Translations under genes and position numbers: made by a program
UHGV virus genome: UHGV-0285842
DNA: 34,986 nucleotides
Strand: one strand, 5' to 3'
Origin: a virus
The notes under the pieces: generated by a model
Database searches by the model: none
Seen by the model: the letters and a program-made list of their open reading frames with translations, nothing else
What the model was told of the DNA's origin: nothing
Part shown: piece after piece, positions 669-20,631 of the stretch
Numbering within the stretch: position 1 is the first letter of the stretch
Layout: every line of letters starts with the position of its first letter

Positions 669-1055
669 ATGTTCAATATCATGATTCGTAAATTTGGTGA
701 GATGACTTTCGAGAAAGCTGGTGTTGCGCGTACAGAAGAAGAAGCAATGGCCTTAGTTCTGGTAGCACTGAGATCATCACCTGAGATTATCGACGCTGAA
801 TATGTTGCGGCTGAGGGTGAGATTAAAGAGATTAAAGCGGTTGCTAAGGAATTAGGTGTTAAAGGTTTCCGTAAGCTGAAACTATCCCGCGAGACTTATG
901 TCATTGGACAGCAAGGACAATACCTAGATGAGAATAGCGCGATTGTCCTACTGAATAAGATCACCCGCTATGGTTTCCAGATTGAGCAATATAAAACGTG
1001 TTTCGAATTATACGAAAAAGGTTTGCTGGATACTCTGACCATCGTTCGCGCTTAA
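669..1055 (+). CDS. hypothetical protein (128 aa), second gene of left-end cargo pair
   Basis: ORF tightly coupled to 384-656 and followed by a rho-independent terminator at 1070-1095. Confidence 0.55.
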   Translation: MFNIMIRKFGEMTFEKAGVARTEEEAMALVLVALRSSPEIIDAEYVAAEGEIKEIKAVAKELGVKGFRKLKLSRETYVIGQQGQYLDENSAIVLLNKITRYGFQIEQYKTCFELYEKGLLDTLTIVRA

Positions 1056-1069
1056 TTAATTTCTAATTT

Positions 1070-1095
1070 GGTGGGTGTAATTCCCACCGCTTTTT
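1070..1095 (+). terminator. rho-independent terminator after the cargo gene pair
   Basis: Stem GGTGGG (1070-1075) / CCCACC (1083-1088), 7-nt loop, then GCTTTTT. Confidence 0.6.
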
Positions 1096-1111
1096 AAATG
1101 GAGAATCAAAC

Positions 1112-1192
1112 ATGTTAGCTTTTATCTCATTCGTGGGAGGTAGTCTCACAACCATGATTAGTCTTTCTTATATTGTCGTTAGTATGGGGTGA
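1112..1192 (+). CDS. tiny hydrophobic ORF (26 aa, MLAFISFVGGSLTTMISLSYIVVSMG)
   Basis: ATG 1112 with GGAG 9 nt upstream; entirely hydrophobic; below the ORF-track length cut-off. Sits directly after a terminator, so expression would need read-through. Confidence 0.25.
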   Translation: MLAFISFVGGSLTTMISLSYIVVSMG

Positions 1193-1195
1193 GCA

Positions 1196-1318
1196 ATGAA
1201 ACAATTTCATGATGGCATTTCATCTAAGACATTCAAGAAAGAATATTCGCTGTGTATTAACTGGATTGATTTGATTGGTGCGGTTGTGTTTGGGCTGATT
1301 ATTAGCATTAACTTTTAA
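1196..1318 (+). CDS. small C-terminally membrane-anchored ORF (40 aa, MKQFHDGISSKTFKKEYSLCINWIDLIGAVVFGLIISINF)
   Basis: ATG 1196, stop TAA 1316-1318; polar N-terminus followed by one predicted transmembrane segment. Confidence 0.3.
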   Translation: MKQFHDGISSKTFKKEYSLCINWIDLIGAVVFGLIISINF

Positions 1319-1363
1319 TGATATAAATATATCGTAATTCAAACAACAAGAGGAAATTCTACT

Positions 1364-1783
1364 ATGAAAAAGATTATCGCTGGTGTTGTTCTTGCTCTGG
1401 GTTTGGTTGGTGCTGCGAATGCTAATACCTATACCTATTATGTGTGCAATTCCTACTTCGAATATAAAGGAGATGATACACGCTACCTGAGTGATGGCGA
1501 CCGTTATTATCATGCGCCGTCTGGCAAATACCGTGGTTTTATCGGTGTAAAGGTTCGAGTGAATGATGATAATAGTCAATTTGCTTTCAACGATCCGGTA
1601 TATGATAAGACAATCAAAAGCCCTAAATTGAAAGAAGATAAGAACGAGAAAGAAGAATATTATGGTTCCGAAGATGGTAAAGCCTACATCAAATATCTGC
1701 ATTCTATTGATGGTTCTCCTATATTTGATGTTAAAAAAGGTGATACGTCTTATTCCCTGATTAGCTGCCGTGAAATTCTTTAA
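1364..1783 (+). CDS. secreted Tyr-rich protein with cleavable signal peptide (139 aa)
   Basis: AAGAGGAAA Shine-Dalgarno before ATG 1364. N-terminus MKKIIAGVVLALGLVGAANA is a classic Sec signal with AXA site and no lipobox cysteine; two Cys in the mature part. Confidence 0.7.
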   Translation: MKKIIAGVVLALGLVGAANANTYTYYVCNSYFEYKGDDTRYLSDGDRYYHAPSGKYRGFIGVKVRVNDDNSQFAFNDPVYDKTIKSPKLKEDKNEKEEYYGSEDGKAYIKYLHSIDGSPIFDVKKGDTSYSLISCREIL

Positions 1784-1797
1784 TCTTTAATCACCTA

Positions 1798-1833
1798 GCC
1801 CCTATCGTTATAATACGCGGTAGGGGCGTTTTT
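1798..1833 (+). terminator. rho-independent terminator after secreted-protein gene
   Basis: Stem GCCCCTA (1798-1804) / TAGGGGC (1821-1827) followed by GTTTTT. Confidence 0.55.
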
Positions 1834-1846
1834 GTTTGGAAATGGT

Positions 1847-3526
1847 ATGAAAACTAAACTGTATTCGTATATTCGCTTCTCGTCTATGCGTCAGAATGAT
1901 GGTTCGAGTTATGAACGACAAATCAGGATGGCGAGAGAGGTTGCGGCAAAGTATGACCTTGAACTGGTAAATGATTATCAGGATCTGGGTGTATCTGCGT
2001 TTAAGGGTGCTAACTCCAAAACAGGGGCGCTATCTCGTTTCCTTGATGCAATTGGTAGATCCGTTCCTGTTGGTAGCTGGCTATTCATTGAAAACTTGGA
2101 CCGCTTATCCCGTGCCGATATTGTCAGTGCGCAGGAGTTATTCCTTTCAATCATCCGTAGGGGGATAACCATTGTTACTGGCATGGATAACAAGATCTAC
2201 TCGCTGGATACTGTTACCGCTAACCCGATGGACCTGATGTTCTCCATCCTTTTATTCATCCGTGGTAATGAGGAAAGCCAGACTAAGCGCAATCGTACTA
2301 ACTCAAGCGCACTGATTAAGATTAAAGCCCATCAAGAAAATCCCCAGAATCCGGCAGTGGCAATCGAGGAAGTTGGAAAGAATATGTGGTGGACGGATAC
2401 CACTTCCGGTTATGTGTTGCCTCATCCTACATACTTCCCTGTTGTTCAGGAGATTGTGGAATTACGGAAGAATGGACGTTCAACCGCCGAAATACTGGAT
2501 CACCTTAACGAGACATATACACCGCCACCAGCGGTTAGTAATAAGAAGCATTCAAAATGGTCACGGGCAATGGTTGAAAGGTTGTTCCATACCCGCGCTT
2601 TGATTGGTATCAAGGAAGTCTCTGTAGATGGTGTTAACTATGAGTTAAAGGATTATTACCCTCGTGTTATTGATGATGCTACGTTCTATCACCTTAAGAA
2701 AAATATTGGTGCTAGAGCATGGAACTTTGGAGACAAGGAAGAAGTTAAACCGATCCCCCTGCTTAGTGGTATTGGCCTATTGAAATGTGATCATTGCGGT
2801 TGCGCTATGGTTAAAGTGAAGGGAACGAACAAACGTTCTGACCAGTATCGTTATACATGTGATGCGACCCGTTCACGTAGACTTGATTGCGAGCATCCAA
2901 ACTGGAGTTTTCGAGGTGATCAATTAGAGAAAGCTGTATTGCAATTGCTGGCTGATAAAATCTGGATTGCTGAGGACAAGGCTAATCCGGTTCCGGCGTT
3001 GAAAGTACAGGTTGATGAAATATCACGCAAGATTGATAACCTGATTGCCCTTTCTGCTATGACAGGAGCAACGAAGGAGCTAGCCGATCAGATTACTACC
3101 CTCAATAGCGAGCGTGAAACACTCTACAATCAGATCAAGATGGCAGAAGAGGAAATGTATTCTGTGGACTCTCAAGGCTGGGAGAAGCTCGCAGAATTTG
3201 ATTTAGAAGATGTTTATAACGAGGAACGACTAAAGGTCCGGTTTAAGATTAAGCAAGCTCTAAAGCGGATCGGGTGTAGCAGGATTGACAGAAATAAAAA
3301 CTTGTTTGTGCTGGAATACATCGATGGAAAGACCCAGAGAGTTGTAATAGAAAATTCAAGAGGAACGAGGAAAGGCCGGATATTCATTGATTTGAAAACT
3401 ATCAATGATAGGCAGATTCTGGAGAGTAACGGGCTTGTTTTGCATCCATGTTTAGACATGCTGACAGATAAGAACTGGAAACCAGAAGAGGAAATACCAG
3501 GTCCATTACAGGAATTTGGAATTTAA
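1847..3526 (+). CDS. large serine recombinase (integrase-type)
   Basis: N-terminal resolvase-type catalytic domain (YIRFSSMRQ, DLGVSAF, LDRLSR), central recombinase domain, Cys-rich zinc-ribbon (CDHCGCAMV...YTCDA...LDCEH) and C-terminal coiled coil. ATG 1847 preferred over the track's TTG at 1832. Confidence 0.85.
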   Translation: MKTKLYSYIRFSSMRQNDGSSYERQIRMAREVAAKYDLELVNDYQDLGVSAFKGANSKTGALSRFLDAIGRSVPVGSWLFIENLDRLSRADIVSAQELFLSIIRRGITIVTGMDNKIYSLDTVTANPMDLMFSILLFIRGNEESQTKRNRTNSSALIKIKAHQENPQNPAVAIEEVGKNMWWTDTTSGYVLPHPTYFPVVQEIVELRKNGRSTAEILDHLNETYTPPPAVSNKKHSKWSRAMVERLFHTRALIGIKEVSVDGVNYELKDYYPRVIDDATFYHLKKNIGARAWNFGDKEEVKPIPLLSGIGLLKCDHCGCAMVKVKGTNKRSDQYRYTCDATRSRRLDCEHPNWSFRGDQLEKAVLQLLADKIWIAEDKANPVPALKVQVDEISRKIDNLIALSAMTGATKELADQITTLNSERETLYNQIKMAEEEMYSVDSQGWEKLAEFDLEDVYNEERLKVRFKIKQALKRIGCSRIDRNKNLFVLEYIDGKTQRVVIENSRGTRKGRIFIDLKTINDRQILESNGLVLHPCLDMLTDKNWKPEEEIPGPLQEFGI

Positions 3527-3563
3527 GCGGCCTAAATCGACGTATAACGAGCTAAAACAGTTA

Positions 3564-3588
3564 AGGGGTACATCCGTACCCCTTTTTA
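3564..3588. terminator. hairpin terminator between convergent recombinase and nuclease-like genes
   Basis: Stem GGGGTAC (3565-3571) / GTACCCC (3576-3582), 4-nt loop, TTTTT downstream. Confidence 0.55.
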
Positions 3589-3599
3589 ATTTAATTGTA

Positions 3600-4598
3600 T
3601 TAAAGAGCCTCTAAAGGGCTTAAATCGAGTTCTAAGTCTTCCGGTGTTAAATCAGCTAACGGTGCATTCATCCACTGCGATAAATCTCGTTCTATGTCTT
3701 CATCACTAATGTAGTTGTTCAGATTGATTGCGTTGGTATCATCAAAATACATTGGCTTAGATGGGTTGGTGTGGATGTATTCATTGATGAATGATTTAAC
3801 ATCTTTCAGCTTGCTAATCGGTAGCGTTTCTGTGAATCCGCTATTCATTACCTTACGTGGGATTTTCTTGCCCTGAATATTCTTTTTAATCCCCATTTCT
3901 AAATCACCAGCTTTCCATCCAATGTTAAACAAATGTGAGCATTCAAAGGTGATTTTCTCGCTGGTGTGCTTCTGGTGTTCTCTTACCCGTTGCATCGGAT
4001 CTTTGCGAGTGGTAATTCCATATTTGAAAAACTTCTCGCCAACACGAATTAGATAAAAGTGCATAGGGCGCTGTGCAAACTTGTTTCTGATAACCTGTTT
4101 TCTACCATTCTGAATTGATTTAAGTACACCCCTAACCAAAGGGCATGTTAACCCGCCTTGTCTGCGGTTATTGTGTAAATCACCTTTCTTGTGAATCTTT
4201 CCGTGGCACTTACAACGAAGAATTAGTTTAGTGTCAACACCCTGATAAGGTTCAGCCAGACCTAACACATCCCACCCTATCGGCTTGTAGAACTTGCGAG
4301 CGTTTTCTAAGTGTTCTTCTTCGGTAAATCTAAACTTCTTCTTAGGCGGTGATACTCTATCTTTGCCAGTAAACTGACCAGTTAGAACATGACTAATACA
4401 TGGCGTTTTAACCTTTCCGTTAACTTCTATGCAAACTTTGGTGTTCTGGAATGGTTTCTTTACAGGAAGCACAAAACCACTGTATAACCATCCATGCACT
4501 TGACAAACTTTAATGATTCTGGTTTCATATTCGACCGGAGGGGTCGCACGTTTGCTTTTTGCGGTAAATTCGATATCCTTTGCTAAAGTAGTATTCAT
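3600..4598 (-). CDS. putative T5orf172 / GIY-YIG-like domain protein with Cys/His cluster (possible nuclease)
   Basis: Start ATG 4598 with GAGGAC Shine-Dalgarno (track ORF extends further upstream without a ribosome-binding site). Motif HFYLIRVGEKFFKYGITTRKDPMQRVREH resembles the T5orf172 signature; Cys/His cluster CKCHGKIHKKGDLHNNRRQGGLTCP upstream of it. Assignment from memory only. Confidence 0.4.
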   Translation of the reverse strand: MNTTLAKDIEFTAKSKRATPPVEYETRIIKVCQVHGWLYSGFVLPVKKPFQNTKVCIEVNGKVKTPCISHVLTGQFTGKDRVSPPKKKFRFTEEEHLENARKFYKPIGWDVLGLAEPYQGVDTKLILRCKCHGKIHKKGDLHNNRRQGGLTCPLVRGVLKSIQNGRKQVIRNKFAQRPMHFYLIRVGEKFFKYGITTRKDPMQRVREHQKHTSEKITFECSHLFNIGWKAGDLEMGIKKNIQGKKIPRKVMNSGFTETLPISKLKDVKSFINEYIHTNPSKPMYFDDTNAINLNNYISDEDIERDLSQWMNAPLADLTPEDLELDLSPLEAL

Positions 4599-4633
4599 AG
4601 TAGTGTCCTCGAAAATAATAAGTTCACTACTAT

Positions 4634-5074
4634 TTATTGAGAAAAATTTGTTGTAATGGTTGAAGACCACGGGCATGAGTAGTAACCACGACCGCCACCG
4701 ATCAAACAAATGGTCGGACGGAAACCAGTAAGATCACAAAATGAATCAGTGTCATGCGCAGGAGAACGATGCTCTGCTTCGTCAGAGAAAATGTTTGCCA
4801 CCGGAGATTCCACTTTAACTTCCGGTGCTTCTTCAACATCTGACTTAACTTCTTCAACCACTGGTTCAACTTCTGGAGATTCTTCTTTTGTTTCTTCAAT
4901 GACGATCTCAGGTTCTTTCATTGCTTCAACCAGAGACGGATCAACTTCGTCGAATACCACTTTATCATCTGCGGTATATTTGTCTATAATGAAAAAATGG
5001 TCAGAAATATAGCTAACGTCGCCAGCATATTCTAACAAAAAAGCGCCCACAAGAGGCGCTTTTGTTTTATCCAT
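4634..5074 (-). CDS. hypothetical acidic Glu/Val/Pro-rich protein; start uncertain
   Basis: ORF in a low-complexity region. Candidate ATG at 5074 overlaps the stop of the M15 gene and would place the 5043-5059 hairpin inside the coding sequence; alternative internal starts exist. Confidence 0.3.
   Translation of the reverse strand: MDKTKAPLVGAFLLEYAGDVSYISDHFFIIDKYTADDKVVFDEVDPSLVEAMKEPEIVIEETKEESPEVEPVVEEVKSDVEEAPEVKVESPVANIFSDEAEHRSPAHDTDSFCDLTGFRPTICLIGGGRGYYSCPWSSTITTNFSQ
5037..5063. terminator. bidirectional hairpin at the end of the late/lysis operon
   Basis: Stem GCGCC (5043-5047) / GGCGC (5055-5059), A-run upstream and T-run downstream; immediately 3' of the M15 gene stop (5067). 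Confidence 0.5.
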
Positions 5075-5420
5075 TCCACCGTGATTTTTTTGATCTGGAA
5101 TCAATATGCGTAAAGGTTTTATATTTTCCTAAGCCGTATTGAGTAGGATATTTCCCATCAAGATAAGCATGAACAATATCAGGCGAGACACCCTTGATAA
5201 CAATGTCAGCCGCACGGCCTCGAACATGATAGCTATTGGTTGCACCGCCAACATTCTTGTTATGAGTCGGGCAACGGTTGCCACTGTTAATAATCACTGG
5301 TTTACCGAAGTGCTCTCGTACATCCTCAAGAATCACCAGTAATTCAGCGTCGATTGTATCATAATCACATTTTCCGCATTTACATTTAAATTCCTTGCGA
5401 GAAAAATGCTTACTTAACAT
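5067..5420 (-). CDS. peptidase M15-family zinc peptidoglycan peptidase (candidate endolysin)
   Basis: FSRKEFKCKCGKCDY...SGNRCPTHNKNVGGATNSYHVRGRAADI...THID matches the M15A/YcbK-type zinc-binding pattern (H, D, H). ATG 5420 with GGGGG Shine-Dalgarno. Confidence 0.7.
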   Translation of the reverse strand: MLSKHFSRKEFKCKCGKCDYDTIDAELLVILEDVREHFGKPVIINSGNRCPTHNKNVGGATNSYHVRGRAADIVIKGVSPDIVHAYLDGKYPTQYGLGKYKTFTHIDSRSKKSRWNG

Positions 5421-5429
5421 ATTACCCCC

Positions 5430-5777
5430 TTAGATCATTTCGAAGATATAACCAATAAAGCGCATACCCTTGATATAATAAGGAGCAGTGCCTACACACA
5501 CCGCGCGTGCATCGCCCAGACAGTTAAAGCTATAAGGATTAACCACATCAACTTCTTGTCCTACACGAAAACGATACTTAGGACGTTTAGCCAATGTAGC
5601 GACACAAAACACGGTCCCTTTTTCATGATCGCGGATACATTCTTTATATTGTTTATGTTTAACTCTCTTCGCCTCAAAATCATGTGTCATAGATTCTGGG
5701 CTAATGCCATTAATAAAAATACCGGAAAGCTGATCGACCGGATAAGTAGGAAATTCAGTGAAAATATTTTTAGCCAT
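5430..5777 (-). CDS. hypothetical protein (115 aa)
   Basis: ORF with GGGGG Shine-Dalgarno 7 nt before ATG 5777; stop overlaps the ribosome-binding site of the M15 gene. Confidence 0.55.
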   Translation of the reverse strand: MAKNIFTEFPTYPVDQLSGIFINGISPESMTHDFEAKRVKHKQYKECIRDHEKGTVFCVATLAKRPKYRFRVGQEVDVVNPYSFNCLGDARAVCVGTAPYYIKGMRFIGYIFEMI

Positions 5778-5815
5778 GTTATACCCCCATAAGTTTCTAT
5801 GAGGGTATTTATGGA

Positions 5816-6499
5816 TTAAACGTATTTCATGCGCGATTTAATGTGCTTATTGATGTTTTCAAGCATCATTGCTTCGTTGCTTTCCCACGATCCTAGCGTC
5901 GAATAACGAGTAGAAATTTTATCCGATTTAACGGCAACAATTCGCTTGCTCTGTTTCTGTATGCGTTTCTCTAAGCGACGTTTTGCCACCGCCGATCCAT
6001 TCCTAGCGCGTTTGGTTCGGGATTTCTTAGGCTTGTACTTCTTCATGATAAAAGTCCCTTCCTTGTTCTCTACCTTGATGAAGTTGCCGTTTTCGAGGTT
6101 ACGCATCATCTTACCGCCTTTGATGGCCTTAATGTTCCCGTGGGCGTCTAAGACCTTACCGTTGGCGATTGGAACTAGCTTATTGATTTTGCCCCCATCG
6201 AAATAGTGTTTCAGATAGTCGTCCTGACTGCCGATCTTCTTATCCTTATCCCTTGCGCCCTTGATGAAGATTTGGTGTCTCGTCCCTGATCGGTTCTTGT
6301 AGTTGGTATTACCTACAGCTTGCTGAGTCCAGCGAGTAGGTCTATCAACATTCTTGTTAATCTTCTTCTGGAGTGCTCTGGAAGCAAAGATCGCCCCTTC
6401 CCCTAGTGCCCTTTCGAATGTATCGGTTGCCTTTTCAGACCATTGCCGTAACGCTTTCTTAGTCCTTAGAGCGTTTCGTTTATTGGTACTGGTTGCCAT
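5816..6499 (-). CDS. hypothetical highly basic Lys/Arg-rich protein (227 aa)
   Basis: ORF with AGGGGGCTAAC ribosome-binding site before ATG 6499; strongly basic composition. Confidence 0.55.
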   Translation of the reverse strand: MATSTNKRNALRTKKALRQWSEKATDTFERALGEGAIFASRALQKKINKNVDRPTRWTQQAVGNTNYKNRSGTRHQIFIKGARDKDKKIGSQDDYLKHYFDGGKINKLVPIANGKVLDAHGNIKAIKGGKMMRNLENGNFIKVENKEGTFIMKKYKPKKSRTKRARNGSAVAKRRLEKRIQKQSKRIVAVKSDKISTRYSTLGSWESNEAMMLENINKHIKSRMKYV

Positions 6500-15362: not shown

Positions 15363-15671
15363 TTACTTTACCTCGTTTTCAATTACCGCCGGATCTTGCA
15401 TCAATGAGGCTTGAGCAACCAAACCGATTAATTCACTGCGGACGTTAGTATACAGTGCCTTAACTTGTTCAATAGATTCAAATACTGGTTTACCGTCTTC
15501 ATCTTCAATACAACGAAGAATCGAACGTTCGTCACGGTCTTCTTTATCAGTATTAAAAACATGTTCGTTAAATTCTTTTACTGACATAGGGCGAGCATAG
15601 AAAGTGAATCCACCGATGGTCAGAGATTCGCGTTTCGGAGAGAGTGCGGCTAACATTTCGTTAATATTCAT
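15363..15671 (-). CDS. tail assembly chaperone, G-like (102 aa)
   Basis: Small acidic protein between tail tube and tape measure genes; AGAGGAAACAAGA before ATG 15671. Confidence 0.55.
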   Translation of the reverse strand: MNINEMLAALSPKRESLTIGGFTFYARPMSVKEFNEHVFNTDKEDRDERSILRCIEDEDGKPVFESIEQVKALYTNVRSELIGLVAQASLMQDPAVIENEVK

Positions 15672-16224: not shown

Positions 16225-16278
16225 TATTCTTTTCCTTCTATTTTAAACAATAGGGCACATACCCGTAATTCTATTTAT

Positions 16279-16581
16279 TTAGCGGTTGCTCAAACGTCTA
16301 TAACGAAGATGAGCGATCCCCCTATTTGTGCTAACGGTAATTACCGCCCCTTGCGGTGCAATACAAGAATGAATCTGTCCCCAATCATGACCCTTATGGC
16401 TTCCAGAAACACACAAACCATGAATAAGCAATTCAGAGTCACCACCGCCACCACCGGAAGAATGAGCACAGAATGAAATAGTCCCGAAAGCGTCGGCTGT
16501 CCAACCGTTAGGAATATCAAACCATCCCTGATTTGCTTTACCCGCCCTATTCCCCAAAGCGCCATCTACCCAAAATGCCAT
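16279..16581 (-). CDS. small Gly-rich protein, paralog 3 of a tandem triplet (100 aa)
   Basis: AGGAGAA Shine-Dalgarno; start overlaps the stop of paralog 2; shares M-x-x-W, FDIPNGW, GL, WG and C-terminal aromatic/basic motifs with the two upstream genes. Confidence 0.6.
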   Translation of the reverse strand: MAFWVDGALGNRAGKANQGWFDIPNGWTADAFGTISFCAHSSGGGGGDSELLIHGLCVSGSHKGHDWGQIHSCIAPQGAVITVSTNRGIAHLRYRRLSNR

Positions 16582-16886
16582 TAGTGCATTCTCCTGAATT
16601 TAAAATAATGCAAACTACCTTTACCCAATGTAAAGCTAACGGTAGCACCAGCGCCAACTAAAGAACTAGCGCCCCAACTCCCAGCATCACCAGCATGATG
16701 ACCTGATTCAATCAATCCATTTACAGCCAATTCAGAATCAAGATCACCAGCACCGTTAATGGCTTCCATATGAGCAAAAACAATTCCGCATGAATCAGTA
16801 ACCCAGCCGTTGGGGATATCAAAATATCCACCATTAGCCCAAATACTAATAGCGTTTGACATTCTTTGATTTATCCATCCAGCCAT
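16581..16886 (-). CDS. small Gly-rich protein, paralog 2 of a tandem triplet (101 aa)
   Basis: GGAG Shine-Dalgarno before ATG 16886; conserved FDIPNGW block. Confidence 0.6.
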   Translation of the reverse strand: MAGWINQRMSNAISIWANGGYFDIPNGWVTDSCGIVFAHMEAINGAGDLDSELAVNGLIESGHHAGDAGSWGASSLVGAGATVSFTLGKGSLHYFKFRRMH

Positions 16887-16888
16887 AA

Positions 16889-17185
16889 TTAAAACTCCAT
16901 GAATTTAAAATATTCAACACCACCTTCACCCCCTAAACCAAAGGAGACGGTGCAGCCAGCAGGAACAAACGAATTTATAGTAGATCCCCAATTGGTCCCA
17001 CCACGACGACGAGCAACGGTCAAACCATCTACGTTAATATGTGCATCAGACCACCCACCACCAGCATTATGACGCATTACAGCGACACCAGCACGAGCAG
17101 TACCATAGCCGTTAGGAATATCAAATACATGCCATTTTAAAGCATCGATTTTAGTATTAATTTCACTACTTACCCAATATCCCAT
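16889..17185 (-). CDS. small Gly-rich protein, paralog 1 of a tandem triplet (98 aa)
   Basis: AAGGA Shine-Dalgarno before ATG 17185; conserved FDIPNGY block. Confidence 0.6.
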   Translation of the reverse strand: MGYWVSSEINTKIDALKWHVFDIPNGYGTARAGVAVMRHNAGGGWSDAHINVDGLTVARRRGGTNWGSTINSFVPAGCTVSFGLGGEGGVEYFKFMEF

Positions 17186-17223
17186 ATAAGAATCCTTAGC
17201 GGAGATTTCTCCCCGCTTTCCAA

Positions 17224-20200
17224 TTACCCTAATTTAGCTTCAATTGCAGCAAGACGTTCACGAAGAAGTTTATTTTCTTCGCTCATTTCTTGGACCGCTT
17301 TAATTAAAAGCGCGTTCACTGCGGAGTTTGAAATTGTTAAAATTTCTTCTGGGTTATCAAGACCACCAATTTTTGCGGTTTTAACAGCTTCCGGTAATAC
17401 CTCTTGTAAATCCTGTGCGATAATACCAATCTCATGACCTATAACTTCTCGGTCATTAAGAGATTTAACTTTATCGTAGGTTTTAACTTTGAGTTTATTT
17501 ACCTTATCCACCGCATTTTCTTCGTAATCTTCAACATTAATTTTCAGACGACCATCGGAACGAATATAAACATCGTTAAAGTTACCATTACCAGGAGAAT
17601 AGAAAGTACCATCATGATGGAACTCGAATACAGCTTGAGGATGACCAGCCGCTGGCGATGCCTCCGCAGATCCAACACGAATAATAGCTTGCCCCCAATT
17701 TTGAGGAACACGACGCATACCAAAATCGACGGCAGTTGTATACCCTTGATTGGTGATTAAACTTCTTCCTTTAATAATTGGATAATAGCTATCTGGTCCA
17801 ACATAGCCATGATCGACGAATATTGGAGCTTCTAATCCCCATTGATCGCCCCAACCTCCAGATTGGCTAGCAGTCCAACGTTCACCATGAACATAGAATC
17901 GAACGTTATTGACATGAGTCATTTCGACACCTTTTGGACTTAGCGCGATATCACCCGCGTTTGTAATATTGATAGCAGCATTAGTAGCATAGCTATAGAA
18001 CGCTAATCCATTATCAGCACCACCTTTACCGATATACCAGTTGTTATTATCAGCACAAGTACCCAGCAAATATATAGACGAATCACCCGTTTCGGCATTC
18101 ATGACGATTGCGTCAGAACCACGATTAACTTTAAGTTTCCCGAAGAAGGTGTTTTTAATGGTATTATCACCCAATCGTTCAAATTCTGCTAAAAATCCTT
18201 TTGAGTCACGAAGACTTAAAACGTTATTTCGACCTGTATTGCTTGCACCCCAATGGACGAGTTCCATATAGTCCATAGATTGACGAGAACCAGCTTTAAA
18301 GAACAGGTTGTCTTCGAGACGAGTGCTACCATCAATTCCAAGATGCAAACAACGAGCAGTTTCAGTGCCACCTAAATATAATCCACCGTCAGCAAAATTA
18401 TAGCTGAATGGTCTACGAGTATTCCACGGTCCAAATGAATCACCGAGATCTGTGGTAAGAATATGGAAGCCAACGCCATCATTTCTAAAAATTAAGCCAT
18501 AATTGCCACCTTTAACAGCCAAACGAGCATTTTCAGATAATGCAACTTCGCTATTCATTACAATTTTCTGGCCTTTACCGCCAGTAATATGCAATTCACC
18601 ATCTTCAATCAGGTTTATAGAGTTTTGACCGTTATCGTTCCACCAAATAAAATCTTTGGTCGTCAAATCACCAAAACCAAACCAACCATTACGAACATCT
18701 TGACCAGTGCGATAATCCATAAAATTAAAATGGCTTGATTCGTTTGGTCCTCGACGAATATCAATACCAGCATTACCAGTACCACCATCCAATGTTAATT
18801 TCTTGATATGTAACCCGGATGTTGCTGTCAGCAATAATTCCTGATTTGTATCTTCGTATCCAGTAGCAAGACGATATGCGTTATCATCAACTGTCTCATG
18901 CCAGATTGTAGCTGGTGCACAACTACGGAAGCGACGCAACATCTTTTTAGCATTTGTCGGTTGTTCGTTTAAATGCTCAATATCATATTGGCCTTGATGA
19001 TTGCCAGCAAAATTTAACGTCCCACGGTTGCTAAAGTTATTGAACGATGAAATGTTAAGAGCATCAAAAATTTCGTCTGCAACAGGTTTTTCACCACCCA
19101 GATATTCAGGAGTATCCAACAGGTTTAAAGAAACACCACCGGAAGAAACTTGATATTCTGCTAAAACAAATCCTGTATGTGCACCGTAGTAAGCGTAAAG
19201 ATCGTAATTGTCGCCATCGGTTGGAATAGCGCAAAAATGTTGTTCATAATGCCAAATAGTATAATACGCATTGAATACAACACCTTTCGGGCTATTGTTG
19301 CCGCATCGAATCACCAATTCGATAATATTGGCTTGTCCATTATGTCCTACGTTATAACCGTTACCACCAACCAAACGGATCTTAGCCGTGCGACCGTGTT
19401 GTTGTGGCATTGTCAAAGTGCCTAGTTTAAACCAACCACCCTCGATACCAAAATTAAGCGTCTTCTGGAACAGTCGGTCAATTTCTGCTTTCGAATATGC
19501 GCCAATTTCAGCCGGAGTAGGTTTATCGCCTTCATGATACATGCGGTGAGAATATGACAAATTACCTAATTCATCATAGCCGTATGTTCTTACAGTAGCA
19601 TGTGGATTAGACCCATAAGTGAACTCGAAGCCACGAGCATGATTAACACCAGATGGATGCGGAACATGCAAGATCATTGCAATATGACCCGCCAGGTCAT
19701 TCATGCGGAATGCACCAAAGTAATCAAGATTACGCGCATTTGGATCATCAAAATAGTTTGCGGTCTTAGACAGCAAATAACCATCAGTATAAGTGTTTAC
19801 GTGTTTTTTGATGTACTTGCCATCAGCAGATCCATCGGCTGCATCAATACGGCTTTCTAAACGTGCCAGTTCAGAATCAGTGTAAGACTTGTTATTGTCA
19901 ACTTTGCTATGAATTGCTGTATTTTTGGCTTCAACATCACGGGTTAATGCTGCGACGTTATCCGCTGCCTCTTGCTTATTGGCTGCAATCACACCAGTAA
20001 GGTTATTGTAGGTGTCAGTTAACTGATTTTCCGCATAGACTTTATTTGCTGCGATAGTGCGGTCAGTTTCTGCCTTAATCAAATCAACCTTGTCATTGAT
20101 TGCTTTGTCATTGCTTGCGATGGTTGCATCGGTGCGGGATTTAATATCATCAACTTTTTTATTGATGCGGGTGTCCAGTTCCTGAGTTGCTACAGCAGCC

Positions 20201-20631
20201 GCATTTTTATTAGCGTTGATGGTATCCGACAATTCAGCTTTAACACCAGCAAGGTCGGAAGCAGCTTTATTTTTATTGGCCTCGATTGTCGCGTCGGTTT
20301 CGCGTTTAATTACATCAACTTTATTGTTAATTTCTGCGTGATTTGCTGCGATGGTTGCATCAGTAGTTTGTTTAATTTCATCTACTTTAGCGTGAATATT
20401 GCGGTCATTTACTGCAATTGTGCTATCTAGTTCTTGTTTGTTAGCATCAACTTTAGATTCTAGTGCCGCGTGAGTTTCAGGAGAAACAGAGATTTGAACT
20501 ACTTCATGATCTCGGTCTTTGGTAAAAATAACATGGTCTTTAAGGTTGATTGCTACCTCACCGACCTGTAATTGTTCCGGCGTTGGTTTTTTGCCAGAAA
20601 CATTAGTTCGTTTAAATTGGATTGATTGCAT
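17224..20631 (-). CDS. side tail fibre (1135 aa) with C-terminal peptidase S74-type intramolecular chaperone domain
   Basis: N-terminal repeated KVDxIKxxTDATIxAN units, central beta-helix-like Gly/Asn-rich region, C-terminal ~110 aa (SDGRLKINVEDY...LLRERLAAIEAKLG) resembling autoproteolytic chaperone domains of phage fibres and endosialidases. GAGGTGA Shine-Dalgarno before ATG 20631. Confidence 0.8.
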   Translation of the reverse strand: MQSIQFKRTNVSGKKPTPEQLQVGEVAINLKDHVIFTKDRDHEVVQISVSPETHAALESKVDANKQELDSTIAVNDRNIHAKVDEIKQTTDATIAANHAEINNKVDVIKRETDATIEANKNKAASDLAGVKAELSDTINANKNAAAVATQELDTRINKKVDDIKSRTDATIASNDKAINDKVDLIKAETDRTIAANKVYAENQLTDTYNNLTGVIAANKQEAADNVAALTRDVEAKNTAIHSKVDNNKSYTDSELARLESRIDAADGSADGKYIKKHVNTYTDGYLLSKTANYFDDPNARNLDYFGAFRMNDLAGHIAMILHVPHPSGVNHARGFEFTYGSNPHATVRTYGYDELGNLSYSHRMYHEGDKPTPAEIGAYSKAEIDRLFQKTLNFGIEGGWFKLGTLTMPQQHGRTAKIRLVGGNGYNVGHNGQANIIELVIRCGNNSPKGVVFNAYYTIWHYEQHFCAIPTDGDNYDLYAYYGAHTGFVLAEYQVSSGGVSLNLLDTPEYLGGEKPVADEIFDALNISSFNNFSNRGTLNFAGNHQGQYDIEHLNEQPTNAKKMLRRFRSCAPATIWHETVDDNAYRLATGYEDTNQELLLTATSGLHIKKLTLDGGTGNAGIDIRRGPNESSHFNFMDYRTGQDVRNGWFGFGDLTTKDFIWWNDNGQNSINLIEDGELHITGGKGQKIVMNSEVALSENARLAVKGGNYGLIFRNDGVGFHILTTDLGDSFGPWNTRRPFSYNFADGGLYLGGTETARCLHLGIDGSTRLEDNLFFKAGSRQSMDYMELVHWGASNTGRNNVLSLRDSKGFLAEFERLGDNTIKNTFFGKLKVNRGSDAIVMNAETGDSSIYLLGTCADNNNWYIGKGGADNGLAFYSYATNAAINITNAGDIALSPKGVEMTHVNNVRFYVHGERWTASQSGGWGDQWGLEAPIFVDHGYVGPDSYYPIIKGRSLITNQGYTTAVDFGMRRVPQNWGQAIIRVGSAEASPAAGHPQAVFEFHHDGTFYSPGNGNFNDVYIRSDGRLKINVEDYEENAVDKVNKLKVKTYDKVKSLNDREVIGHEIGIIAQDLQEVLPEAVKTAKIGGLDNPEEILTISNSAVNALLIKAVQEMSEENKLLRERLAAIEAKLG
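20040..20420. repeat. imperfect tandem repeats (~48 bp units) in the fibre N-terminal shaft
   Basis: Recurring GCGATGGTTGCATC...TTTAAT-TCATC-ACTTT blocks, at least four copies, encoding the repeated KVDxIK-TDATI peptide motif. Confidence 0.5.

Follow-up and report, generated by a model that had tools for sequence, protein, structure and literature searches.

A T5orf172-family homing-endonuclease-type gene beside relics of T-even phage DNA at the end of an Escherichia coli prophage

Homing endonuclease genes (HEGs) of the T5orf172 family encode zinc-finger repeats, arranged like beads on a string and followed by a T5orf172 domain, and one of the repeat types, the CapR domain, is a zinc finger with a CxxC...CxC motif (PMC10448857). 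Here we describe a gene of this architecture, HEG1, in virus genome UHGV-0285842 (34,986 nucleotides; this whole stretch of DNA is referred to as the window). The window holds a prophage of Escherichia coli integrated in ycdX, with HEG1 at the prophage end (Table 1). HEG1 belongs to the T5orf172/CapR class of phage homing endonucleases, described only recently, and extends it by one member. Like gp165 and gp174 of phage ICP1 and their relatives, its product has N-terminal zinc-finger repeats of the CapR/DUF723/DUF4379 type and a C-terminal T5orf172 domain, and like them it is free-standing, lies at the borders of exchanged DNA and has domains that are shuffled between alleles (PMC10448857). 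Unlike the described HEGs (Barth, Dunham and Seed 2023), which have an essential lytic-phage gene nearby, it resides in a temperate prophage beside the integrase gene; moreover, its first repeat is without zinc ligands, it carries an extra conserved acidic tail, and it is syntenic across three host genera.

Other known systems share parts of this picture. The closest phage homologue found, JK32_00173, belongs to a Krischvirus, where it is inserted between uvsW and uvsW.1 at about 2 kb from inh; it is located in the same T-even segment whose fragments flank HEG1. It is 35% identical to HEG1 over residues 152-287 and 34% identical over the full length to the allele of a related prophage (L008; relatives are designated by such numbers where needed), and T5.141 of phage T5 is 27% identical to HEG1. 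JK32_00173 and T5.141 ('endonuclease', RB49ORF239c-like) nevertheless differ from HEG1 in their low identity, in their DNA-binding parts and in being genes of lytic phages. CapR of the Vibrio cholerae satellite PLE has the same type of cysteine-containing DNA-binding domain (PF21817; Netter et al. 2021, PMC8096241), but it is a repressor made of this N-terminal domain alone, whereas HEG1 keeps a complete C-terminal nuclease domain with GIY-YIG-type residues and is therefore not a stand-alone CapR-type repressor. ICP1 Odn likewise uses a T5orf172 nuclease domain in a conflict between mobile elements, with specificity from a swappable DNA-binding module (PMC10448857, PMC8263062); Odn, however, has an acquired RepA_N DNA-binding domain and a demonstrated target, and the module of HEG1 is different. 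The GIY-YIG homing endonucleases of T4 (I-TevI, Seg proteins) and SLX1 have no detectable sequence similarity to HEG1 and different DNA-binding domains, and the 'GIY' and 'YIG' motifs of HEG1 read FYL and KYG, unlike theirs.

The reading we favour, with modest confidence, is that HEG1 is an active homing-endonuclease-type nuclease of the T5orf172 family, situated in an island derived from T-even DNA and promoting exchange at the island borders. The open reading frame (ORF) runs from an ATG start (4598-4596) to a TAA stop (3602-3600). The same 999-bp version is annotated by RefSeq in a 98.9% identical E. coli chromosome, and a protein cluster with 396 member sequences is 100% identical to HEG1. 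A TTG-started version of 369 codons was rejected as an artefact of upstream extension.

A preliminary description of this DNA, made without database searches, had noted a Cys/His cluster and a motif resembling the T5orf172 GIY-YIG-like domain, and had called for profile searches and structure prediction. Both detected similarity to this nuclease family and fold. The C-terminal domain of HEG1 is assigned to the T5orf172/MUG113 type (GIY-YIG clan) through profile-linked homologues, PHROG 681 and matches among viral structure models: PHROG 681 ('endonuclease') matches residues 87-292 (4e-20), and a profile built from 18 homologues retrieved 2003 representatives at E ≤ 0.001. Close clusters of HEG1 numbered 18 in a set of 5.8 billion proteins, all of them enterobacterial. 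When 118 top family members were scanned, CapR was matched in 93 (E ≤ 0.001), DUF4379 in 40, MUG113 in 28, DUF723 in 22 and T5orf172 in 9. The AlphaFold model of HEG1 (mean predicted local distance difference test score, pLDDT, of 78.7) folds residues ~18-75 and ~92-157 each into a small domain of helix plus sheet and residues ~176-280 into a third domain, the acidic tail being poorly ordered. A Foldseek search against viral models (BFVD) gave 112 matches at E ≤ 0.001, many of them named CapR homology, T5 Orf172, GIY-YIG or homing endonuclease. No relative emerged when PDB sequences were searched with a profile. Across the 118 sequences, G194, R204 and E234 do not vary and conservation reaches at least 90% at Y182, K192, E257 and T258, a set that by analogy would fit the expected active site of the GIY-YIG type (motif-1 Tyr, Tyr/Lys-x-Gly, an Arg about 10 residues on, and a metal-binding Glu).

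The N-terminal part consists of CapR/DUF723/DUF4379-type zinc-finger repeats, an assignment that draws on homologues, on the CapR matches of the family and on conserved cysteines. Homologues P0014 and P0018 exceed the CapR threshold (39.1 and 72 bits), and P0014-P0018 have a precomputed PF21817 hit. In repeat 1, the structure model shows a helix (21-35) and strands (38-64) with pLDDT 83-93. The Cys/His cluster noted earlier is present in repeat 2 as R-C129-K-C131-H132-G ... C152-P, with C129, C131 and C152 invariant or nearly so in the family alignment. The acidic tail is nearly identical even in alleles of 37% overall identity, and its last 88 nt are part of a conserved flank; tested as a remnant of a T-even gene, it showed no similarity to T-even loci. 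It may bind a partner, be autoinhibitory or merely serve as a recombination flank.

The interval between HEG1 and the terminator of the lysis cluster (4634-5038), which the preliminary description had passed over, is made up of gene relics. Megablast of positions 3000-6000 against 50,697 phage records matched 59 Krischvirus and related T-even genomes, all at 4666-4977, with identities of 96%-98% for most matches and 98.1% at best. The product of the matched gene is Inh, the inhibitor of prohead protease, of lytic Krischvirus/RB49-like phages. Next to this fragment is the stump of a second T5orf172 gene, HEG2, which in sibling prophages is intact and encodes a 193-amino-acid CapR+T5orf172 protein (188-195 amino acids in E. 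coli and Salmonella siblings, divergent from HEG1). In some siblings, HEG2 heads a uvsW operon (in L008 also including uvsW.1) with the promoter TTGCAT-17-TATAAT. What is annotated at 4634-5074 as a 'hypothetical protein' is a pseudo-ORF, put together as a chimera from the terminator antisense, the HEG2 stump antisense, Inh residues 84-186 and a read-through into the HEG1 promoter. Given the inh fragment and the HEG2 stump upstream of HEG1, the window derives from an arrangement such as that of prophage L002 (endolysin, terminator, HEG2, a shortened inh termed mini-inh, HEG1) by a 676-bp deletion. It is a decayed island, from which HEG2 and the front of mini-inh have been deleted and in which HEG1 is intact.

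We compared prophages with HEG1 alleles of 37%-65% identity, including prophages of E. coli, Salmonella and Proteus. All share a frame of tail-tip gene, small genes, M15 endolysin, terminator, variable slot, HEG1, terminator and serine recombinase, and a T5orf172 gene is syntenic at the HEG1 position in every diverged relative examined. Where the flank is visible, they are integrated beside ycdY/ycdZ/csgG (in ycdX), apart from L031 and L033, which lie in other chromosomal contexts. The slot holds HEG2 followed by T-even-type uvsW and uvsW.1 in L008, and HEG2 with uvsW only in L010 (Salmonella), these T-even-type genes being approximately 75% identical to Krischvirus at the nucleotide level. 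It holds HEG2 and mini-inh in L002, L032 and L035, mini-inh without HEG2 in L031, and HEG2 with a piece of hoc in place of the inh piece in L030. In L034, an inh scrap is accompanied by an ORF resembling an Ig-type (Hoc-like) domain, which matches neither Inh nor Hoc by BLASTP. In L033, the slot holds a truncated uvsW, and a third CapR-type gene is inserted between a 115-amino-acid gene and the endolysin gene, implying that T5orf172 genes have multiplied within this prophage end. All identified slot pieces come from one contiguous T-even segment, hoc-inh-uvsW-uvsW.1, with T-even order and orientation kept, and the positions of HEG1 and HEG2 are the borders of the DNA derived from it.

The mini-inh ORFs, found in prophages of different genera, always have their first codon where Inh has Met49, and the majority of them end near residue 186. 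Their products are 100% identical to Krischvirus Inh in the E. coli prophage L002 and 48%-54% identical in L031, L032 and L035. The ratio of nonsynonymous to synonymous substitution rates (dN/dS) is 0.16-0.31, and no ribosome site precedes mini-inh in any relative examined. We had considered mini-Inh as a clearly functional prophage gene, a candidacy since downgraded, as there is no ribosome site and the low dN/dS was perhaps inherited from T-even donors; it may be a functional decoy or inhibitor, or a repeatedly refreshed relic.

The E. coli inh copy differs from that of Makalu_002 with dN 0 and dS 0.13, and is up to 99.5% identical to other isolates over 182 bp. In the window, L002 and L032, mini-inh meets the HEG1 promoter at one and the same junction (tails SSTITTNFSQ and SSLINPNNL), which is therefore old. 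Since it is old, the near-identity of the E. coli inh copy to present-day Krischvirus is best explained by recent replacement of, or gene conversion of, this copy from an infecting phage. Elsewhere in the window, the C-terminal half of a 1135-amino-acid tail-fibre protein and small ORFs downstream of it match the gp37 region of the T-even distal long tail fibre, which represents a second, independent and recent exchange between prophage and Krischvirus. Together, the inh fragment and the shared tail-fibre DNA indicate that contact between the prophage and Krischvirus was repeated.

On these grounds, a mechanism can be proposed. Two CapR-type repeats would read a specific DNA sequence, repeat 1 in degenerate form and repeat 2 probably binding zinc through C129/C131/H132/C152, and a linker would join them to a GIY-YIG-like catalytic domain (Y182, K192-x-G194, R204, E257) that cuts nearby DNA. 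HEG1 and HEG2, which are divergent, bracket hoc-inh-uvsW-uvsW.1-derived DNA between the lysis genes and the integrase gene of this temperate prophage family. HEG1 would probably cut the HEG-less homologous DNA of superinfecting T-even phages in the hoc-inh-uvsW-uvsW.1 segment, and the repair of these cuts by recombination would drive phage-prophage exchange precisely at the island borders.

Several observations weigh against this reading. HEG1 appears syntenic across E. coli, Salmonella and Proteus rather than sporadic, which is compatible both with a gene kept for its usefulness and with a selfish one. Its T-even homology is on one side only, so that classical two-armed homing is impossible from the present arrangement, and neither HEG1 nor HEG2 stands next to inh in any sampled Krischvirus; homing into those phages was not seen. 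Direct Pfam matches of HEG1 are all below the curated thresholds (CapR homology domain, residues 102-134, E 0.014, 16 bits against a threshold of 24.2; MUG113, residues 192-273, E 0.13, 13.4 bits against 22.3), no NCBIfam model matches HEG1, and Foldseek of the whole model against the PDB gave no match. The family's fourth zinc ligand, C155, is Val in the HEG1 subfamily, for which C131 might possibly substitute. As to expression, the promoter-like element matches the consensus at 9/12 positions only, and the hairpin of the initiation region (see below) has one covarying pair across nine loci, which is not significant.

Table 1. Positions of HEG1, its parts and associated features in the window and in related prophages.
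Sequence	Feature	Coordinates	Strand	Basis or remark
Window	HEG1, intact T5orf172-family nuclease gene, 332 amino acids	3600..4598	-	ORF and translation, PHROG 681, family profile, structure model
Window	CapR-like repeat 1, degenerate (codons ~18-75)	4374..4547	-	Zinc ligands mostly lost, C32 invariant; model and family consensus
Window	CapR-type repeat 2 (codons ~92-157), Cys/His cluster C129-x-C131-H132...C152	4128..4325	-	Sub-threshold Pfam CapR; family CapR matches
Window	T5orf172/MUG113-type GIY-YIG-like nuclease domain (codons ~176-280)	3759..4073	-	Y182, K192-Y-G194, R204, E234, E257
Window	Acidic C-terminal tail (codons 285-332, ...APLADLTPEDLELDLSPLEAL)	3603..3746	-	pLDDT about 50-60; alignment
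Window	HEG1 initiation region	4596..4643	-	Promoter-like TTCTCA 4643-4638, 17 nt, TATTAT 4620-4615
Window	Relic: internal piece of T-even inh (Inh residues 84-186), 312 bp	4666..4977	-	96-98% nt identical to Krischvirus
Window	Relic: last 18 codons and stop of second T5orf172 gene HEG2, FVYNEKMVRNIANVASIF plus stop	4979..5035	+	Comparison with sibling prophages
Window	Hairpin terminator between HEG1 and convergent serine recombinase gene	3563..3584		Strong for + strand, U-run weaker for HEG1
Window	Bidirectional terminator closing the lysis cluster	5039..5063		Follows the endolysin stop (5067); HEG2 or uvsW.1 also ends here in relatives
Window	Second copy of promoter-region motif (TAAATACTAGTGAACTTA)	31482..31499	-	Upstream of 149-amino-acid ORF heading operon with Rha
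Window	Tail-fibre region, T-even distal long tail fibre gp37-like	16263-19768; ORF 17224-20631	-	Up to 97% nt identity, Krischvirus KFS-EC
L002	mini-inh ORF just upstream of HEG1	3135-3581
L031	mini-inh ORF just upstream of HEG1	5503-5943
L032	mini-inh ORF just upstream of HEG1	4487-4957
L035	mini-inh ORF just upstream of HEG1	4587-4943
L030 (STEC1575 prophage)	Slot ORF, 134 amino acids	7127-7531		58% identical to Krischvirus Hoc (head outer capsid protein) residues 198-324
L033	Third CapR-type gene, 345 amino acids	2836-3873		KYGIT nuclease-type motif
L033	Truncated uvsW, 223 amino acids	4258-4929

We assessed how HEG1 varies between otherwise similar prophages. The window and L008 are 94.7% identical over window positions 1054-3687, and their recombinase and endolysin proteins are 97%-98% identical, whereas HEG1 is 37% identical. 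The borders of this swap are inside HEG1, where nucleotide homology ends after the first ~11 codons and resumes for the last ~29. Between the window and L010, recombinase and endolysin are 74% identical and HEG1 50%. A gene whose central part is swapped between otherwise 97%-98% identical prophages is an accessory cassette and not a structural component, and with nuclease similarity found and a structural role ruled out, the earlier hedged proposal of a homing-endonuclease-like selfish gene or a nuclease effector is supported. The dN/dS of HEG1 alleles is 0.10-0.30 where dS can be estimated (dS is saturated in many pairs and the values are rough), and the protein therefore appears to be under constraint; its dN exceeds the recombinase value by a factor of ~1.2-2.3 when prophage pairs of comparable divergence are considered. 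As judged from these alleles, HEG1 behaves as a maintained, swappable cassette.

Relatives without HEG1 had been expected to reveal whether the gene is an insertion at this position, and a clean insertion was not found: the relatives lacking the gene carry deletion scars. Among 5426 complete E. coli genomes, 18 have HEG1 (95.5%-98.7% nucleotide identity), 13 have a deletion scar and one has IS1 in the region. In strain 39EVA (NZ_CP138416), the HEG1 region contains an IS1A. The seemingly empty relatives have lost the equivalent of window 3646-4907 and kept the last HEG1 codons. We rejected the idea that HEG1-less relatives are empty target sites, since in the one examined, L003, a 65-amino-acid ORF (...DEVDPSLVEVMKEPE followed by DLELDLSQL) joins an inh-derived part to the HEG1 tail codons across a 6-bp overlap. 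In deletion-scar prophages, the recombinase stop is also separated from the terminator region by approximately 258 bp that are missing from the window (L003 2030-2286). Scans of viral contigs with the HEG1 protein and with the alignment found only the same prophage and one locus with a distant (37% identical) homologue, and no T-even context appeared in them; a scan of species-representative genomes found nothing.

Constraint and swapping are also what a nuclease domesticated for the lysogen would display, and we regard this as a possible, though less probable, alternative. HEG1, with HEG2 and, in relatives, UvsW and mini-Inh, would then form an anti-phage module that cuts or sabotages superinfecting T-even (Krischvirus-like) phages, comparable to ICP1 Odn and the PLE nucleases, and T5orf172 nucleases have precedents in such conflicts (PMC10448857; PMC8263062). 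A stable position beside the integrase in prophages of three genera, the low dN/dS where estimable and the physical contact with Krischvirus recorded in the neighbouring DNA are all consistent with defence, and the swapping of the central DNA-reading part between near-identical prophages, together with the elevated dN relative to the recombinase, fits an arms race. However, HEG1 has no significant match in PADLOC-DB 2.0 (best PD-Lambda-1, E 0.005-0.007 over 22-44 residues), no PADLOC match was obtained for either HEG2 or P0014, and the mini-inh ORFs are without ribosome sites. The module also decays readily, HEG2 being lost in the window and only the scar being left in 13 complete E. coli genomes as against 18 with the gene. 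A broader version, which we consider doubtful, takes the prophage end as a module of captured T-even genes that is turned against T-even phages or kept in exchange with them. It would consist of two T5orf172 nucleases, joined in fuller versions by mini-Inh and a UvsW/UvsW.1 helicase. Superinfecting Krischvirus-like genomes would be cut by the nucleases in hoc-inh-uvsW, and gene conversion from the attacker would renew the captured copies, accounting for the 100% amino acid identity of the E. coli mini-Inh to Krischvirus Inh. If true, the module would either exclude the lytic phage or be a prophage-borne reservoir of homing endonucleases entering lytic phages.

Under the reading we favour, HEG1 would be a transcription unit of its own, driven by the proximal promoter-like element. 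The preliminary description had taken the gene as a separate unit at the distal end of the late strand, and this holds: HEG1 has its own GAGGA ribosome site (4610-4606) and promoter-like element and is bracketed by two hairpin terminators. On one side, it converges with the gene of a large serine recombinase (559 amino acids; Resolvase, Recombinase and Zn_ribbon_recom domains) that ends at 3526. On the other side, the bidirectional terminator proposed earlier is real and closes the lysis cluster, with U-runs on both strands (z -3.4 and -4.1 for the stretch 5030-5072), but it lies ~440 bp upstream of HEG1 and is not adjacent to it. A survey of ribosome sites across the window also bore out the contrast with late genes. 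Sites of the GGGGG/AGGGG class precede nearly all structural and lysis genes, and GAGGA/AGGA sites precede accessory, early-looking and some tail-region genes (GAGGA/AGAGGA at the accessory or early-looking genes 30548-30880, 31001-31450 and 15363-15671), which suggests modules of different origin. The 15-bp identity with the start of the Rha gene was likewise found, as ACTACTATGAATACT at 4590-4604 and twice at the Rha start (30451-30465 and 30433-30447), three matches in the window against 0.01 expected; a different 15-mer, GAGGACACTACTATG, was discarded as the wrong one, with just a 13/15 match at 31448-31462. The 15-mer occurs twice at Rha because the start of that gene (30433-30465, minus strand) has an 18-nt tandem duplication (ACTACTATGAATACTGTT twice, giving MNTVTTMNT).

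The initiation region contains the invariant motif TAAATAGTAGTGA. In the form TAAATA(G/A)TAGTGA, it is invariant upstream of every allele (9 diverged loci), occurs once per prophage locus and is placed 25-40 nt before the start; in the window it lies between the promoter-like TTCTCA and TATTAT. As TAAATA-N-TAGTGAACTTA, an 18-nt motif, it has exactly two sites in the window, 4619-4636 and 31482-31499 (both minus strand), both before GAGGA-type genes, and is probably a promoter or operator element common to HEG1 and the Rha operon. Since it also precedes that operon, HEG1 seems to be wired to the prophage's own promoter type. Positions 31492-31499 read TATAAATA, the T4 late-promoter consensus; a T4-type late promoter was kept as a lead only, given that an operon of the prophage itself is preceded by the motif (31482-31499). 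When viral contigs were scanned for exact 15-mer copies of the promoter motif, 93 scattered matches appeared and were taken as chance. An inverted repeat, ATAGTAGTG (4633-4625) and CACTACTAT (4605-4597), surrounds the -10, the GAGGA site and the ATG. The corresponding RNA hairpin has a predicted free energy of -12.8 kcal/mol (z -4.9), and in a comparison of nine loci 95% of cells preserve its pairing. In several T4 genes, including e and I-TevI, a hairpin masks the start in read-through transcripts and is absent from transcripts of the proximal promoter. By analogy, read-through transcripts from upstream would fold the ribosome site and AUG of HEG1 into the hairpin, and translation would take place only from proximal-promoter transcripts, which would be without its 5' arm.

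These signals can also be read as those of a regulator. HEG1 would then be mainly a sequence-specific DNA-binding protein (CapR-like, or resembling I-TevI in autorepression) whose binding sites are the conserved TAAATA-N-TAGTGA / ACTACT elements of its own promoter and of the start of the Rha operon, and cleavage would have been lost or be of secondary importance. The restriction of the 18-nt motif to these two sites, the excess of the 15-mer shared with the Rha start and a conserved inverted repeat spanning the -10 and the start codon would suit such a role, for which CapR, a repressor derived from this DNA-binding domain, and I-TevI autorepression are precedents (PMC8096241). We think it unlikely, as the proposed catalytic residues are fully conserved and the motif is invariant before alleles with strongly differing DNA-binding parts (down to 37% identity; an extra repeat in P0014). 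For the latter reason, RNA polymerase or a conserved prophage factor is a more likely reader of the motif than HEG1 itself. That HEG1 is an inert, hitch-hiking remnant of an old T-even capture, as its clearly relic neighbours (truncated inh, HEG2 stump) and the common deletion derivatives might suggest, is very improbable: the HEG1 ORF is intact and shared unchanged by 396 sequences, every diverged relative examined has it intact too, dN/dS is well below 1 where estimable, and the proposed catalytic residues and upstream signals are invariant.

What this analysis adds to the described T5orf172 genes is the relics beside HEG1 and, with them, a hotspot of lytic-temperate exchange bracketed by nuclease genes; the literature searched yielded no description of inh or uvsW accompanied by T5orf172 genes in a prophage. 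This context matters more than one further member of the family, as it records a concrete and datable case of DNA passing between Krischvirus, a T-even lineage that is strictly lytic, and a temperate prophage, marked by an inh fragment of 96%-99.5% nucleotide identity, by fragment borders exactly at nuclease genes and by an independent exchange of tail-fibre DNA. A lysogen together with RB49-like phages would provide a tractable E. coli system for asking whether prophage-borne homing endonucleases exclude lytic phages or seed them with new endonuclease genes.

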